Below are positions 39,824 to 63,923 of a DNA stretch of 64,000 bases, piece after piece. This DNA is from Candidatus Woykebacteria bacterium (GTDB lineage: Bacteria > Patescibacteriota > Microgenomatia > Woykebacterales > RBG-16-39-9b): assembly GCA_040876345.1 (NCBI GenBank), contig JBBDPM010000006.1, forward strand, positions 70,803 to 134,802. The letters run 5' to 3'. Each line of letters starts with the position of its first letter. The first letter of the stretch is position 1. Both the position numbers and the translations under genes were made by a program. A model generated the notes under the pieces. It was not told the DNA's origin and did no database searches. It saw only the letters and a list, made by a program, of their open reading frames with translations.

Positions 39824-41890
39824 ATGATTAAAAAAATCTTTTCAAAAAACTTAATAATTTTATTAGCAGTTTTTGCAATTATTCTTTATCCACTATTAAC
39901 TTCTAATCAGGCAGTTTTCGCTGCTCCTGAAACACCTCAGACACCAGACTTACCATCAACTGCGACTCAGAATCCAGGCGACCAGATCATCCAAAACCCA
40001 AATATTGAAGAGCCCCAACCTCAAACTCCAGAGGTCAGCCCAGAAGAAGCCGAGAGGCAACGTCAAAGAGAAGAAAGGCGGGCAGCAAGAAGGCTTGCCA
40101 GAGAACAAGCAGCGCTAGCTGCGATAAATAGCCAGCCTTCCCAAGAACCAAGTGTTGGCTCTCCAAACCCGGCCGTAACAAATATTGGAACAGCTGAAAA
40201 CTCAGGCGAGGAAGTCAGCTTGGAAACGCTTTCCGCCGCCAATTCTGACACTGGATCTGACTCCGAGAACAATGCAAATTCTAACCTAGAAAATAATTTG
40301 GGGACCGAGATCAACAACGACTTAAATGTTGATAACGGCGCGTATATAAATGTCGACTCCGGTCACAACGGTGCTGACAAAAATACCGGGGACGGGGAAG
40401 TTGTCTCTGGTGATGCCGATCTCATGCTTACCGCCCTGAACGTTGGCAACAACGTTGGTGTTGGTACCCAGGTATTTAACATCTTTGATGATCAAACAGG
40501 AGACGTAATACTCGATTTTGACGATGTAACTCCAGTTTCTCTTGGAACTCTCTGCAGCGACTCAACTAGTGCTAATCAAACAACCGGGTCTTATTCTGAA
40601 AATGATGCCAGCACCACTTGCACCAGCAACAATACAATATTAGTAGATAACAACGGTAACATCGTTAACGATTATTATTTAAGCGCTGACACTGGCCACA
40701 ATAGCGCTAGCAAAAACACGGGGGATGGATCAGTTACCACGGGTGATGCCAATGTTGTTCTAAACGTAATTAATTTCTTTAATAACACTTTTCTGGGAGG
40801 AGCCGGTGAACTCTTACTTGGAATTGTAAATGTTTTCGGAAACCTTTCCGGTGATATTGTCCTTAATATGCCCAGTTCCGGGGATGAATTCTTTGTCGCT
40901 GGCACGGATGGCAACGCAGCTAATTCTACAACCGGGTCTTACTCGGATAATAACGCTGGCACTAACACAACAAATAATACTAATGTTTCTTTAACAAACA
41001 GCGCCGATATATTAAACAACCTTATGCTTTTTGGTGACACTGGCGGAAATGATGCCTCGAAAAACACTGGTTCAGGATCGGTATTGACCGGGGGCGTAAA
41101 TGCAAATCTTAACGTCACAAACATTAGTAACACAAACGCCGTCGGGGATGCAGGTACTCTTTGGCTTGTGCTGGTAAACAATCTAGGTGAGTGGACAGGC
41201 CAAATATGGGGCTTTGACAGCACCGGCACAGCATCTCCCTTCTTCACATTTTCGATCGGGGAAGATGGCTCATTCAACGCGGGCACCGGTGAAGACTCTA
41301 CCAATAATGCCTCCACCTCAACAACCAACAATACAGGCATCGATGTAAATAATAGGGCGAATCTGACCAACAATGTCTACATAAACGCGAACACCGGCGG
41401 AAATAGCGCTTCAATGAACACAGGCTCCGGAATAATAAAATCAGGGGACGTAAATGTAGCCGCAAACATTATGAACATTCTAAACAACAACTTCGTCGCT
41501 TCGCGATTTGTAATTACGATTGTCAATGTGTTTGGCAGCTTCTTCGGGGACGTTTTCCCAGGTGGGGAAGAACAAAAGGCGGATGTTGAGGCCAATGAGG
41601 ACACTTCGGTTGCAACCGGGCCAGGAAAAACTGTTGTAGCTAGCAATAATAATCAAGGAACAGGGTTTGGTGGCTCTAAATCAAACATCTCTGCCAACAA
41701 CGACAACCAAGGATCGGCTCTATCCACAAACATTTTAGGGCCCGATGAAAGTAGAGTAGAAGGTATAACAAAAGTAATCGGAAAAGACAGTAAGAACATA
41801 ACCGACTATTGGTGGATTGCTATCCCATTATTATTAATAGCCGCCGGTACTGCCGCCGCAAAAAGGAGGCAACTATGGAAGGCAGGCTAA
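39824..41890 (+). CDS. large secreted repeat protein (Pro-rich and coiled N-region, 4-5 longer repeats with TGxN(S/D)ASKNTG(D/S)G core, C-terminal TM + KRR)
   Basis: 688 aa; signal/TM at N-terminus; repeats ADTGHNSASKNTGDGSVTTGDANVVLNV...; C-terminal WWIAIPLLLIAAGTAAAKRR. Confidence 0.7.
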   Translation: MIKKIFSKNLIILLAVFAIILYPLLTSNQAVFAAPETPQTPDLPSTATQNPGDQIIQNPNIEEPQPQTPEVSPEEAERQRQREERRAARRLAREQAALAAINSQPSQEPSVGSPNPAVTNIGTAENSGEEVSLETLSAANSDTGSDSENNANSNLENNLGTEINNDLNVDNGAYINVDSGHNGADKNTGDGEVVSGDADLMLTALNVGNNVGVGTQVFNIFDDQTGDVILDFDDVTPVSLGTLCSDSTSANQTTGSYSENDASTTCTSNNTILVDNNGNIVNDYYLSADTGHNSASKNTGDGSVTTGDANVVLNVINFFNNTFLGGAGELLLGIVNVFGNLSGDIVLNMPSSGDEFFVAGTDGNAANSTTGSYSDNNAGTNTTNNTNVSLTNSADILNNLMLFGDTGGNDASKNTGSGSVLTGGVNANLNVTNISNTNAVGDAGTLWLVLVNNLGEWTGQIWGFDSTGTASPFFTFSIGEDGSFNAGTGEDSTNNASTSTTNNTGIDVNNRANLTNNVYINANTGGNSASMNTGSGIIKSGDVNVAANIMNILNNNFVASRFVITIVNVFGSFFGDVFPGGEEQKADVEANEDTSVATGPGKTVVASNNNQGTGFGGSKSNISANNDNQGSALSTNILGPDESRVEGITKVIGKDSKNITDYWWIAIPLLLIAAGTAAAKRRQLWKAG

Positions 41891-42708
41891 AAAAGCTTAC
41901 CTTTAAAATTTCTTTAACAACTGCCGCTTTCGGAGCATCGCTTTTAATTGCTCCCGGAGCACTTGCTCAAACTGCCCAAAACCAAAGTACTGGAGCAGAC
42001 TCTAGTAATACCGCGGAGGTTAAGGTTGAAAATGATTTAAATGTGTCTTCAAATAACACTGCTAATATCAACAATAACCTTAAGATAAGCGCTAACACTG
42101 GTGGGAACAGCGCTTCGAAGAACACTGGAGACGGAACTGTTAAGACAGGCGACATAACCGGCCGTGTTAGCATTGTAAATGATGTTAACTCTAACAGTCT
42201 AAACGATTCGAACTTTGACTGCAGCAGTCTTTGCACGGTGAGTTGGGACATCAAAGCTTCAAACTCCCACACGGGTGCAGATTCTGAAAACAGCGCCACT
42301 GTGAACGTTGAGAACGATGTCGATATAACTCAGAATAACGACCTGGATATCGACAACAACTTAGACGCCGATCTTAACACGGGCGACAACGAAGCCGATA
42401 AAAACACTGGCGACGGCAGCGTGAAATCAGGCGATATAGACTTTGATGTCAGTATCGTAAACGAAGGGAATAACAACAGTATTGGTGGGCCGGTGGAAGA
42501 TCCAAAATCTCCACCACCAGCAGGACCAAAGACTCCAACACCTGGCAAGCCTTCCGAAAAAGGCAGGGTATTGGCAGCAACCAAAGGTCTACCCGTAACC
42601 GGTGGTAACCTACCAGTAGTGCCCGCTTTAGCTCTAATTTTGGCCGGACTCTTTTTAAGAAGGATGGAAGAAGTCTTAAGAGGCCGATTTCTTACCGAGA
42701 AAAGCTAA
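41875..42708 (+). CDS. LPXTG-anchored repeat surface protein (2 repeats, PT-rich stalk, LPVTG)
   Basis: SD AAGGAGG 41863-41869; signal peptide; ...NTGDNEADKNTGDGSVKSGD...; PPPAGPKTPTPGKP; LPVTGG + hydrophobic segment + RR. Confidence 0.7.
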   Translation: MEGRLKKLTFKISLTTAAFGASLLIAPGALAQTAQNQSTGADSSNTAEVKVENDLNVSSNNTANINNNLKISANTGGNSASKNTGDGTVKTGDITGRVSIVNDVNSNSLNDSNFDCSSLCTVSWDIKASNSHTGADSENSATVNVENDVDITQNNDLDIDNNLDADLNTGDNEADKNTGDGSVKSGDIDFDVSIVNEGNNNSIGGPVEDPKSPPPAGPKTPTPGKPSEKGRVLAATKGLPVTGGNLPVVPALALILAGLFLRRMEEVLRGRFLTEKS

Positions 42709-43096: not shown

Positions 43097-43540
43097 TTAG
43101 ACCCAAGCACCTATAATTGCTCCCATAACGACAAATTCGATTAAGTGGCTTCCAACATTCAAGAGATAAAGATTCTTTGGCTTATCTTCAAAAGATGCGT
43201 GAACAAGCAATGTTGTTGCTACAAACCCTAGCCAAACCCAAAAACCAACAACTGCTCCTTCTTGCCAAGTACTAGCCTGTGCATAACTTGATATATAGGC
43301 AAGAACATAGGCAGTTACAAGAGCGGAGACGGCAGCAATAACCATTGCCTGGACAGCTCCTTTTCTCACACTCTCTTCTGTTTTTCCAACCAATTGTCTC
43401 CAAGTTTTACCAAAAAGTGGCCCATACCAAACAGAGCCAGTAACCATGCTAACAATAGCAGCTACAAGTATTGCAAGATAATTTACATCGACCGCTAGCA
43501 CATTTATCACCTCCTTTTTAACCCTCTCTAGATTTGACAA
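43097..43540 (-). CDS. DUF1761-like small membrane protein
   Basis: 147 aa, 4 TM. Confidence 0.4.
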   Translation of the reverse strand: MSNLERVKKEVINVLAVDVNYLAILVAAIVSMVTGSVWYGPLFGKTWRQLVGKTEESVRKGAVQAMVIAAVSALVTAYVLAYISSYAQASTWQEGAVVGFWVWLGFVATTLLVHASFEDKPKNLYLLNVGSHLIEFVVMGAIIGAWV

Positions 43541-43741
43541 AAAGAGGGTTTAACTTTATACGCAACCATATTAAATCCTGGGTAAAGAATACGCAACCAT
43601 CAGTTTTTACTTAAATTCTGAAAAATATTAATATAAATTTGACTCCGTTTGGTAGAATTAACTAACGCTACGAAGTCGCTGATGGTCTCAGTGCAAAAAC
43701 GACGGAGATAGGAGTTCTGCGATGAGAGAGCCGCCCCGCAA

Positions 43742-43873
43742 AGAAGGTGCGACTATGGGGGAGTTCAAGACGATTCTCATCCTCGTAGTAGTCGCAATCG
43801 GACTAAGCACAGCAGTCTGCTTTCGGGCCCAAATCTTCGGCTTGCTCTTCTAGTATCTTGTGTCCGAACTTAA
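43742..43873 (+). CDS. small hydrophobic peptide (43 aa) in GC-rich patch
   Basis: SD-like TAGGAG 7 nt upstream; MREPPRKEGATMGEFKTILILVVVAIGLSTAVCFRAQIFGLLF. Confidence 0.25.
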   Translation, partial: RRCDYGGVQDDSHPRSSRNRTKHSSLLSGPNLRLALLVSCVRT

Positions 43874-44590
43874 GACGCCAGGCTGGCAAACCTTGGTATC
43901 CAAGAGAGGCCAGCTTTCTCACTTATAAATCCTTTATTTGTGAACCTAAAAGTGCCATTTTTGCTTGATATATCAGCCATTTATAGTCCTATAGCGCTTA
44001 CTTGACAAGAGGGCCAGGGAGGTGGCAGTTTAGTGTATAAACTGCTATTATTGACTGCCATATCAGCCTTTTTGGGGTTTTTATGGAAAGGAATTTCCGG
44101 GGAATTTTTACAAAACGAATAAAAATAGAGTACGGGGCAACTTAGAGGAGAAAATAAATGATCTATAGAGCGAAGAAGAAAGGAGAAAAACAAATACTTT
44201 GCCCGGCAGGGAGGCTGGCGTGACGTCGCATAACCATCATTGTGCGACGTAACATTAAATCAAGGCTAGGGCTCTAAAAGACCAGTGCGTACACTTCTAG
44301 AGTGGTGCGGAAAAATAAGGGGCAAAACTTTTTTTCTAAACTTTTTCTCCACTACTAAGTAACCATCTACATTATTAAAACGTCTTCTAGGGCATTATAG
44401 CGCCTTGCCCCAAGGTTACAAATCGGTCCTTATAAATCCCATCTACATTCCTAAACCCAAGTTCCTGAATAATTCCAATTTTGCTTGATATAACATTCAA
44501 TAATTTACCTTTTAGGTTCAATTTTGGTTAGGTTTTTTTTCTATATAAACCTAGAGAGAGAGAGGTAGCACTCTACCTCGGAGTGCGCAA

Positions 44591-44618
44591 AGACCGAAAG
44601 TCTTTCGGGTTTTTTTTG
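44591..44618 (+). terminator. rho-independent terminator inside 1.3-kb non-coding region
   Basis: CCGAAAG-T-CTTTCGG stem then G-TTTTTTTT; preceded by second hairpin GCACTC-TACCTCG-GAGTGC. Confidence 0.5.
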
Positions 44619-44877
44619 ATTGGACCCTAATTTAGCAGACGGTACTACACCCTATAGTTTTGGACTTTCCACACGTGGAAATACTGTATCAAACTATATC
44701 AACAAACTTTGTTTCTCATATCAAAATCCCCTGAAAAGGGGACTTTGCTACTACACTTCTCTACCCTAGCTGGTTGGTTGCCAAATTTTTTTGAGCCTTG
44801 ATAATTAGTTTACTAAAATCAACTTGACTGCAGAGTAATCGTTATTCTATTTTAAATAGTACAGTTTTAATTACTTA

Positions 44878-45651
44878 CTACCCTCTCCAACTAGTCGTTA
44901 CCAAAAGAAAAACCATCACCGCTACTCCAACGAAAATATACTCAAGCACCGTTGACTTTTTTAAATCTTTTTTTACATCATGCTGCAAGATTCCGAGCAA
45001 AACGTAAACTGCGGCCGTCAGGGCAAGACCAACCTTGGCTGGGTTTAGGGGCCAGAAGGAAAAGGCTAACGCAATCTCTCCGAGAACTAAACCTAAAACA
45101 AAAGACGAAATAGTGACGTGCGGGCTTGGGGTTTCTTCCAATTCAATTTTCCAAAGAGCTTGAGTAAAAAGCAAGATTCCGATAGTAGCCACCAAAGCTG
45201 CAAAAAGCCAAAAATCTAACCCCACACCAAAAAGCAAAGAAAAAATTGAAAATGAAACAAACAAAGTACCCAAATATGAGACTGTGTTAGCAGCTCTAAT
45301 AAGCGGAATATTACGCTCGGCCGAGACGTTAAAAATATTTTCGGAAAGAAGCAAAATATACATAACAAATCCAAAGACAACGCATAAAACAAGTCTCACC
45401 AGGTTTTCCGGTTCAAATTGGTAGACAAAACCAGCGAAGCTTGTCGTTAAAAATATTGGCAAAACAAACAGTGTTAAAAACTCAAATCCGGAAACATCTC
45501 TGAAAAGAGACCAAAGGGATAATGCATAACTTGCAGCGATTATTCCAGCCAGAAGCCAAATCCTTAAGTCTTCCGGTGCAGCTGAGGAAAAGTAAATGCT
45601 TGCGGACAGCAAAAAACTTGTGATCACAATTTTTTGCCTTTTGGTCAACAT
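44878..45651 (-). CDS. hypothetical polytopic membrane protein
   Basis: 257 aa, about 8 TM. Confidence 0.5.
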   Translation of the reverse strand: MLTKRQKIVITSFLLSASIYFSSAAPEDLRIWLLAGIIAASYALSLWSLFRDVSGFEFLTLFVLPIFLTTSFAGFVYQFEPENLVRLVLCVVFGFVMYILLLSENIFNVSAERNIPLIRAANTVSYLGTLFVSFSIFSLLFGVGLDFWLFAALVATIGILLFTQALWKIELEETPSPHVTISSFVLGLVLGEIALAFSFWPLNPAKVGLALTAAVYVLLGILQHDVKKDLKKSTVLEYIFVGVAVMVFLLVTTSWRG

Positions 45652-46250: not shown

Positions 46251-46562
46251 TTATACTAGGTCAAATTCCCCTTTCTTTCGCCTATTATCAATTTCTTTTA
46301 AAACTTTTGGATACTCTTCTTCTAGATCAATTTTGTAGTGGGCCGCTACAAGGAATATAGAAAAAAGAACATCACAGACGCTATCGACAAGCTCTGATTT
46401 AGACCGGTTCTTTGTTTTAAACCCCTCTGTAACTTGAATAGCATTTGCTAGTTCTCCAACTTCTTCAACCAAATCATTGAATCTTTGGTATATCTCCCAT
46501 TTTGGTGGCGGCATAGAATTGGCTACTTTTTTAGTTTCCAAAACCGCTTCGTTAAGTTTCAT
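46251..46562 (-). CDS. MazG-like nucleotide pyrophosphohydrolase domain protein
   Basis: 103 aa; EEVGELANAI... EExxE metal-binding pattern. Confidence 0.55.
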   Translation of the reverse strand: MKLNEAVLETKKVANSMPPPKWEIYQRFNDLVEEVGELANAIQVTEGFKTKNRSKSELVDSVCDVLFSIFLVAAHYKIDLEEEYPKVLKEIDNRRKKGEFDLV

Positions 46563-63835: not shown

Positions 63836-63923
63836 GGGCAAGTGGCGGAACTGGTATACGCGTAGGTCTCAAAAACCTATGGTGGCAACACCTTGTGGGT
63901 TCGACTCCCACCTTGCCCACCAA
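63836..63923 (+). tRNA. tRNA-Leu (anticodon CAA), class II with long variable arm, CCA encoded
   Basis: Acceptor GGGCAAG/CTTGCCC, D-arm, anticodon stem TAGGT/ACCTA with loop CTCAAAA, long variable arm, T-arm GTGGG-TTCGACT-CCCAC, discriminator A + CCA. Confidence 0.8.

Follow-up and report, generated by a model that had tools for sequence, protein, structure and literature searches.

In the difSL-xerS system, the recombinase gene immediately follows the Xer recombination site, and in the plasmid Xer sites cer and psi, the core site is directly adjoined by accessory DNA at a fixed phase. Among large ornate RNAs, OLE adjoins a membrane-protein gene, oapA. The difH site is located immediately upstream of xerH, and the consensus of the Escherichia coli dif site is GGTGCGCATAATGTATATTATGTTAAAT, that is, GGTGCGCATAA-TGTATA-TTATGTTAAAT (PMC3325230). 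Here we describe a non-coding gap of ~1.3 kb (positions 43541-44877) in a 64-kb stretch of DNA (hereinafter referred to as the window), which is very probably the replication-terminus/dif locus of a Woykebacteria-like chromosome. An earlier reading of this gap (hereinafter the original prediction) had taken it for a region of short repeats and hairpins that might encode small RNAs (sRNAs) and/or a type I toxin-like peptide; the region is real and most of the motifs described in it exist, but it was misread, and the replication terminus was not recognised. As an explanation of the whole gap, a terminus/dif locus with an adjoining conserved block that carries small convergent transcription units is, on balance, the one that we consider probable.

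The gap is flanked by two minus-strand genes encoding membrane proteins of the DUF1761 (43097-43540) and DUF5656 (44878-45651) families, as had been stated originally, and the public annotation of the 586-kb contig (GCA_040881185.1, JBBEDR010000006.1), where the gap falls at roughly 439.5-441 kb, contained no gene in it. The accompanying statement that no open reading frame (ORF) of 60 aa or longer exists there was not strictly true, since a 70-aa ORF with a TTG start was present on the minus strand (43981-44193); no Pfam match was found for this ORF. The presence of DUF5656, RuvC, and YebC placed the window in the candidate phyla radiation (CPR), and homologues of the DUF5656 protein were found in Candidatus Woykebacteria (50-53% identity) and in Daviesbacteria (39%). 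Judging from these proteins, the window is part of a Woykebacteria-like genome (Microgenomates, CPR).

As far as 42708, nearly all large ORFs in the window were encoded on the plus strand, whereas those from 43097 onwards were nearly all on the minus strand. The GC skew of the first 43 kb was near zero or positive, and beyond this point it was clearly negative. This convergence of genes, together with the change in skew at ~43 kb, points to a replication terminus. A dif-type site was located 1.1-1.5 kb from the switch in gene strand and the change in the sign of the GC skew.

The dif-type site was formed by the inverted repeat ACGTCGCA/TGCGACGT, which the original prediction had listed among its hairpins; it is a recombination site of the dif type rather than an RNA hairpin. 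With its two nearly identical inverted arms and 6-bp centre, the site has the architecture of dif (inverted arms of ~11 bp separated by a centre of 6-8 bp). It also resembled the dif consensus, above all at the inner arm positions; as counted by eye, the version found in relatives (..CACAA-TGTATC-TTATG..) matched E. coli dif at 18 of 28 positions, with 16/18 in the inner CGCAnAATGTATnTTATG. The site occurred once in the window. A site of this kind was identified, 390-511 nt downstream, in all 17 related loci whose sequence continued for at least 510 nt past the core of the conserved block described below.

Two types of the site were distinguished among the 17 loci. Type A, found in nine of them (26-28 of 28 positions identical), was like the site of the window and was also present downstream of DUF5656 in Daviesbacteria-like loci. 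Type B, found in the other eight, read ATCGAGTATAA-TCACCA-TTACACTCGAT, and its outer arm bases shifted in concert (ATCGAG/CTCGAT, ACCGAG/CTCGGT, and ACTGAG/CTCAGT), the pattern expected when a single protein recognises the two arms. In the eight type-B loci, the site was directly upstream of a gene for a XerC/D-like recombinase, between a promoter (TTGACA-N17-TAGGAT) and a 313-aa ORF containing Phage_integrase and SAM-like domains. The best NCBIfam matches of this ORF, over its full length, were XerC (3e-60) and XerD (1e-58), both below the equivalog cut-offs. We are highly confident in the prediction that the site in the window serves chromosome dimer resolution. Its nearly identical arms argue for one recombinase rather than a pair of XerC and XerD; a single Xer-type tyrosine recombinase would bind both arms and resolve chromosome dimers at this position. 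The terminus/dif locus would be a known kind of site; in this case, a single recombinase would serve it, and its arms fall into two families.

Between DUF5656 and dif, a non-coding block of ~0.5 kb was always present. Three genomes were retrieved by similarity of the DUF5656 protein alone (74%, 51%, and 49% identity), and in all three the gap following DUF5656 aligned with that of the window. A further 20 metagenome loci were retrieved by an exact-pattern scan with part of the core; in all of these, the core was located 120-220 nt after the DUF5656 gene, and the synteny YebC-(MazG)-RuvC-DUF5656 was the same. In the three genomes and the 20 loci, the block was found 16-121 nt past the DUF5656 stop codon, and the purine box GGGTAGAGGAG was conserved at this distance. 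On the minus strand, the shared order within the core was TGATATAGT-N-TGATATAGT, then TTTCCACGYGTGGAAAG, N4-6, and AACTATAGGGT. The core was followed by an unconserved spacer of 46 ± 1 nt and then by A6-7CCCGAA; the core itself was found once in the window. TTCGGGTTTTTT was present in 22 of the 23 aligned sequences, and ACCGAA was found in its place in L017 (related loci are denoted by L numbers).

Further conserved elements included AAAATCCCC, which is accompanied by a hairpin, a GYGCTAC motif that precedes a pyrimidine box, modules of the form ..TATAACAAGCAAATTT.., GAGTGCTAA, and CAAGGCGCTGTAAGGCCCTAGAA.CGTTTTT. A CTGATA..CAG block was conserved past dif. In the alignment, the relatives had one or two copies of the module of type C between the core and dif, and the module copies beyond dif (43948-43984 and 44038-44074) were kept in L003, L009, L014, L021, and L022. 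The hairpin CCCC-TGAAAA-GGGG is followed by a T-run on the minus strand in the window and on the other strand in relatives of variant B. The block was retained in L026 (nhmmer E = 1.8e-21), which was retrieved through a DUF5656 homologue with 42% identity, and was recognisable in degenerate form in L030 and L031. Two copies of TGATATAG, YTATRGG (mostly CTATAGGGT), ACCCGAA, and the purine box were retained in L031, L030, and L027, which were likewise retrieved by protein similarity. No conservation among relatives was detected in the part of the gap from 43541 to 43880. No match to the block was found in the plasmid and phage collections, and literature searches on its motifs returned no relevant paper. 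The features of the gap are listed in Table 1.

Table 1. Sequence features of the gap between the DUF1761 and DUF5656 genes (positions in the window; strands are those of the features or of the sequences as printed).
Feature	Position	Strand	Description
Hydrophobic ORF, 43 aa	43722-43853	plus	not conserved; probably not a gene
Hairpin GCTGGC...CTTGG-N-CCAAG...GCCAGC	43882-43914		common to L003 and L009
Module copy A	43948-43984		far side of dif; contains the perfect palindrome TGATATATCA (43966-43975)
Hydrophobic ORF, 29 aa	44033-44122	plus	GTG start, GGAGG upstream; probably not a gene
Module-like copy B, ..GACTGCCATATCAGCC..	44038-44074		followed by TTTGGGGTTTTTATGG, a 77% copy of the terminator tail; families D1 and D4
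Predicted dif-type Xer recombination site	44223-44250	minus	ACGTCGCACAA-TGATGG-TTATGCGACGT; 11-6-11, 28 bp
Conserved box CAAGGCGCTATAATGCCCTAGAAGACGTTTTAA	44375-44407	minus	contains TATAGCGC
Module copy C, ..CAATTTTGCTTGATATAACA..	44468-44504	plus	the ATTTTGCTTGATATA repeat; repeat family D1
Pyrimidine box CCTCTCTCTCTCT	44553-44565	minus	
Hairpin GCACTC-N7-GAGTGC	44568-44586		minus-strand GAGTGCTAC box conserved in the clade of the window
CCGAAAG-T-CTTTCGG, then G and T8	44594-44617	plus	intrinsic-terminator-like; A8CCCGAA box on the minus strand
Near-invariant core, 55 bp	44649-44702	minus	TGATATAGT-T-TGATACAGT (44683-44701), then the palindrome, then AACTATAGGGT
AACTATAGGGT	44649-44659	minus	3' part of the core
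Candidate sRNA, ~90 nt (inferred)	44665-44750	plus	5' palindrome hairpin, single-stranded ACUGUAUCAAACUAUAUCA, hairpin CCCCUGAAAAGGGG
Palindrome TTTCCACGTGTGGAAA	44666-44681		within the core, 16 bp; also given as TTTCCACGYGTGGAAA
Hairpin CCCC-TGAAAA-GGGG	44728-44741		between DUF5656 and the core
Purine box GGGTAGAGAAG	44756-44766	minus	conserved as RGRGUAGAGGAG, 16-121 nt past the DUF5656 stop codon

As a side observation, TTTGGGGTTTTTATGGAAAGGA (44071-44092) is a copy, at 77%, of the terminator tail TTTCGGGTTTTTTTTGATTGGA (44603-44624). Taken with module copy A, this copy suggests that the 'module ... terminator' unit has been partly duplicated on the far side of dif.

The block may hold small convergent transcription units, including a candidate sRNA, a reading that we prefer, with low confidence, to a folded RNA or a toxin gene. 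Terminators were called in all sequences by one uniform scan, in which plus refers to the plus strand of the window, antisense to DUF5656. Plus-sense terminators were located 45-69 nt to the DUF5656 side of the palindrome in 9/23 sequences, against 0.16 expected from shuffles, and only two minus-sense terminators were found on this side, that of the window among them. On the dif side, plus-sense terminators were located 63-83 nt from the palindrome in seven of 20 relatives, the one at 44594-44617 in the window included. These two sets of plus-sense terminators bracket the core, which fits a plus-strand transcript of ~90 nt. In the window, the hairpin at 44594-44608 followed by T8 has the form of a Rho-independent terminator; the 5' arm of this dif-side terminator was missing in most type-B loci, and the number of terminator-like elements in the gap was 3, against a shuffle expectation of 2.6. 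The hairpin on the DUF5656 side was significantly stable only on the plus strand (z = -1.43, P = 0.0008, vs. -0.32), the strand on which alone it contains G-U pairs. Further, a plus-strand RNA spanning 44664-44756 folded with z = -3.0 into a 5' hairpin, an open ACUGUAUCAAACUAUAUCA, and a 3' hairpin. A -10-like TATAGT, derived from ACCCTATAGTT, was found on the plus strand (44653-44658), ~7 nt before the palindrome, and read TATAAT in L026. An invariant T-run was located at -50 to -55 with fixed spacing to the core. In the proposed arrangement, the near-invariant core would consist of a promoter and the 5' half of a plus-strand RNA of ~90 nt (the 5' hairpin and the repeated ACUAUAUCA), and the fixed, unconserved 46-nt spacer would reflect promoter geometry. 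Transcription of this RNA would proceed towards DUF5656 and end at a terminator hairpin, and the terminator at 44594-44617 would close the preceding plus-strand unit.

Several observations weigh against this explanation of the gap. The call of the terminus and the single-copy occurrence of its elements are local to the 64 kb of genome in the window. No xer gene and no homologue of the type-B recombinase was found in these 64 kb, and the central 6 bp of the window's dif site (TGATGG) differ at four bases from the TGTATC of all other type-A sites, the arms being unchanged. The scan pattern fixed ACCCTATAGTT and part of the palindrome, so that the invariance of the core in the 20 metagenome loci is partly due to ascertainment. 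No conserved -35 element was found around the core, the -10-like hexamer is altered at critical positions in L027 (TATAAC) and L030 (CATAGT), and the plus-sense 3' hairpin of the window has a poor U-tract and was called a minus-strand terminator by the scan. Moreover, L031 and L027 have lost the 5' arm of the palindrome but kept motifs like GTGGAAA, which argues for sequence recognition rather than pairing, and the spacer-less palindromes TTTCCACGCGTGGAAA and TGATATATCA and the direct repeats spaced by 10 bp are features of protein-binding DNA. Such features are central to a rival explanation, which we find possible but rather doubtful, that the block is a DNA element without an RNA product, namely an array of protein-binding sites that organises the terminus. 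The array would be composed of TGATATA half-sites in direct and inverted orientation, the 16-bp palindrome, and G/A-rich boxes, and Xer accessory sites, a polar fork-arrest site, or a terminus-anchoring site are possible roles. It would account for the conservation of primary sequence without covariation, for palindromes that are perfect and loop-less, and for TGATATAGT repeats placed 10 bp apart. TGATAT recurs in either orientation and to either side of dif and was enriched in the gap (TGATAT/ATATCA, 6 observed vs. 0.79 expected, P = 1.7e-4). In the clade of the window, dif is flanked by module copies on both sides, the length of the unconserved spacer is constant at 46 ± 1 bp, and GTGRAAA direct repeats persist in distant relatives that lack the palindrome. 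However, the distance between core and dif varied from 216 to 511 bp, which is hard to fit with a phased accessory complex, and the core is a single, oriented copy, so that it does not form a symmetric trap. Nor was a candidate binding protein identified, and the strand-specific terminator hairpins flanking the core would be left unexplained. The sRNA and the DNA element are not mutually exclusive, because promoter or operator DNA can adjoin an RNA product.

A single large structured RNA (~220-500 nt) on the minus strand, co-transcribed with DUF5656 and representing a new OLE-, RNase P-, or ROOL-like family, seems improbable. The block always comes directly after DUF5656 and on its strand, in some cases no more than 16-28 nt past the stop codon, and its size and mixture of conserved boxes and variable spacers are like those of large RNAs. 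The purine and pyrimidine boxes, ~200 nt apart, can pair (-16.1 kcal/mol vs. -12.0 kcal/mol on the other strand), variable blocks were mildly more stable than shuffles (z = -0.66 and -0.95; P ~0.002), and a few G-U-compatible changes were seen in distant relatives. In a proposed core of 23 pairs, 94.9% of cells were paired, compared with 41-61% when the partners were slid, yet the covariation score did not differ from that of shuffles. RNAalifold on the 23 sequences recovered only two invariant helices (the palindrome and GGGU/ACCC; 10 pairs, -4.6 kcal/mol) and no compensatory change. The structure conservation index was 0.08/0.05 for the 23 sequences and 0.30/0.27 within the window's own clade, and hairpins differed even between fairly close relatives. 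The z-score of the minimum free energy for the first 220 nt of the block was only -1.3 on the minus strand (-1.7 on the plus strand). Cognate partners paired no better than non-cognate ones, either in the helix of the purine and pyrimidine boxes (P = 0.76) or in a second candidate helix, GGGU(R)UAG/CUAC(C) (P = 0.25). These negative structure tests make a large folded RNA on the DUF5656 strand unlikely. No Rfam 15 match was found in the gap at E <= 10, and none was found in 20 related loci at the gathering score. The original proposal of one or more sRNAs may be correct: no Rfam family, conserved structure, or covariation was found for it, but the recurrent plus-sense terminators that bracket the core (7/20 and 9/23) speak in its favour. 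A locus for a type I toxin-antitoxin system or a small membrane peptide, in line with the other original proposal, is very improbable. Two short hydrophobic ORFs do exist in the gap, and the 29-aa one is preceded by GGAGG. However, the 43-aa ORF had no tblastn counterpart among ~30 related loci and lies in the unconserved part of the gap (43541-43880), and the 29-aa ORF, which overlaps a conserved nucleotide module, was interrupted by a stop codon in L015 and had no match at that place in L003. Pfam matches of the small ORFs were below threshold. As neither ORF is conserved, the toxin is unsupported.

Further candidates were examined and rejected. A pseudogene remnant of a 102-aa ORF in L003 was considered, but no tblastn similarity was found, and neither the 43-aa ORF nor the 102-aa ORF had a counterpart in the other's genome. 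A helix closing the block between the purine box and any of three downstream pyrimidine stretches was discarded; duplexes formed in every sequence, and non-cognate partners were equal. C-to-U changes in the palindrome were likewise discarded as G-U evidence for a minus-strand RNA, given that the other arm was fixed by the search pattern and that such changes are also predicted by a mutation bias from GC to AT. RNase P RNA was considered because GGAAAGUCC...CUAUAGGG and four boxes looked collinear with CR-I to CR-V. It was ruled out by the lack of a cmscan match on 551 nt, the lack of consistent P4 pairing, and the variability of CR-I (AGGAAAGUCC), in which GUCC was not conserved and GGAAAG was lost in L027. 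GGAAAGUCC itself was not conserved among relatives, reading GGAAAGUUU or GGAAAGAUU and being absent in L027. A tmRNA was excluded, since ARAGORN detected none in the window and no T-arm was present. FtsK-orienting (KOPS-like) G/A-rich boxes were dropped, because the k-mer skew over the 64 kb merely mirrors the bias of the coding strand and is uninformative. A mobile element or integrative mobile element exploiting Xer (IMEX) was rejected on the lack of plasmid or phage matches and on the fixed position of the block in all relatives.

As for the individual motifs of the original prediction, most of them exist, with most coordinates given 17-22 nt too high. CTTATAAATCC is duplicated at 43922 and 44429 and is specific to the window; TATAGCGC is duplicated at 43990 and 44396, and ATATCAGCC at 43970 and 44060. 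The 15-mer ATTTTGCTTGATATA is exact only at 44477, and the copy at 43957 reads ATTTTTGCTTGATATA. Taken singly, two-copy repeats of 8-11 nt occur at chance level; the elements conserved in relatives are the ATTTTGCTTGATATA module, the terminator, the GCACTC hairpin, and the ACGTCGCA palindrome. The 8-bp hairpin GCAGTTTA/TAAACTGC was found at 44025-44045 and was not conserved outside the window, and TGGCAGT...ACTGCCA, described as enclosing it, overlaps its stem and forms an alternative pairing instead. The cluster of GCACTC/GAGTGC, CCGAAAG/CTTTCGG, and T8 had been placed correctly (44568-44617). The position of the 43-aa ORF required correction to that in Table 1. The Rfam scan and the comparative alignment that had been suggested as checks gave, respectively, no match in the gap and a conserved dif site and block, the latter without covariation.

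Resemblances of short motifs in and around the block to known protein-binding sites were also recorded, which we take to be leads only. GCACTC-N7-GAGTGCTAA resembles the CIRCE/HrcA operator (TTAGCACTC-N9-GAGTGCTAA), with a spacer of 7 instead of 9. Over the window (44568-44586) and relatives, this element reads GCACTC-N7-GAGTGCTA(C/A); its right half-site is the exact 9-mer GAGTGCTAA in L005, L012, L016, L021, and L024 and reads AAGTGCTAA in L026 and L027. In the spacer that separates the core from A6CCCGAA, exact 9-mers resembling a DnaA box (TGTGGATAA) were found in L009 and L027, and the palindrome half-site TGTGGAAAG matches TGTGGATAA at 7/9 positions. Such sequences are odd for a terminus region and may be due to chance. 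Likenesses to parS and to an extended -10 element (TGATATAGT) were noted as well. In all of these resemblances, spacing or sequence differs.

Several genes were observed in the surroundings of the gap. Just left of the terminus, two large repeat proteins rich in Asn, Gly, Thr, and Asp were encoded on the plus strand (39824-41890 and 41809-42708), both without a Pfam match. The 299-aa repeat protein ends in ..LPVTGG.., a hydrophobic tail, and RRMEE, which resembles a cell-wall anchor of the sortase (LPXTG) type. Homologues of these terminus-side proteins were found beyond dif in L003, L009, and L021. A gene for a MazG-like protein of 103 aa (46251-46562, minus strand) was located between yebC and ruvC and was present in several relatives, not in all. 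Across the 64-kb window, the sole Rfam or ARAGORN match was a tRNA-Leu(CAA) gene (63836-63922, plus strand). In the Daviesbacteria-like loci L027-L030, a gene of the 23S_rRNA_IVP family (PF05635) was encoded directly beyond dif on the opposite strand (e.g., L027:5514-5831 and L030:5898-6284); this four-helix-bundle family also includes the Avd proteins of diversity-generating retroelements. In L026 (Woykebacteria), genes for a LAGLIDADG homing endonuclease (L026:4234-4740) and a DUF6602 protein were found just beyond dif. The dif site of L026 appears to share the ..TGG end and is partly masked by an N run (L026:3881-3891). The records of L003 (OZ246414.1) and L004 (DASVHF010000007.1) bear the titles 'Gammaproteobacteria' and 'Nanoarchaeia', which look wrong, because their YebC-RuvC-DUF5656 synteny, like their identity of 51-74% to the window, indicates CPR bacteria of the Microgenomates type.

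The block was found at the same place in every relative examined, and its 55-bp core was almost identical while the flanking protein had diverged to ~50% identity. Sequence conservation of such strength normally marks essential machinery. A possibility that we raise with considerable reserve is that of a Microgenomates-specific element tied to the dimer-resolution site, either as a new sRNA family transcribed from the near-invariant 55-bp core beside dif or as a new dif-accessory or terminus-organising DNA site. If true, these bacteria with minimal genomes would possess a dedicated factor, acting in cis or in trans, to which the termination of replication or the resolution of dimers is coupled. 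An sRNA would represent a new family in a lineage for which we found no described regulatory RNAs in the literature, where our searches likewise found nothing on structured RNAs in these CPR lineages; a DNA site would be a new component of terminus biology. In addition, the dif site would provide a fixed terminus landmark for Woykebacteria- and Daviesbacteria-like CPR genomes, nearly all of which are fragmented metagenome bins, and the near identity of its arms suggests an Xer system that has one recombinase and two co-varying arm families.

Of the known systems, the site in the window is closest to the dif/Xer sites (E. coli dif-XerCD, difH-XerH, and difSL-XerS), with which it shares a length of 28 bp, 11-bp inverted arms and a 6-bp centre, the inner arm bases ..CAnAA-N6-TTATG.., and a location where the replichores converge. 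The type-B clade is like difH-xerH and difSL-xerS in that dif lies immediately upstream of the recombinase gene. Unlike in E. coli dif-XerCD, the arms are nearly identical here, which would imply one recombinase, and two arm families (types A and B) occur within one bacterial class. The locus also differs from known dif loci in the conserved non-coding block that always lies 0.2-0.5 kb from the site; to our knowledge, a nearby block of this kind is not a known feature of dif loci. With cer and psi, the locus shares a few hundred bp of conserved DNA on one side of the Xer core, with repeats of protein-binding appearance, but here the spacing varies (216-511 bp), the site is chromosomal, and no motifs of the PepA, ArgR, or ArcA type were recognised. 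In its size range and its position beside the gene of a multi-pass membrane protein, the block is reminiscent of OLE and RNase P RNA, and GGAAAGUCC...AUAGGG bears a superficial likeness to CR-I of the latter; it differs from both in having no Rfam match, no long-range pairing of the P4 type, and no covariation. Compared with the genes of trans-acting bacterial sRNAs, the block lacks a -35 element and an Rfam family, its sRNA is a candidate predicted from sequence alone, and the spacer-less 16-bp palindrome and direct repeats are more operator-like. What it has in common with such genes is an intergenic unit of ~90 nt bounded by terminators, in which a conserved promoter and 5' half would be followed by a variable 3' half.

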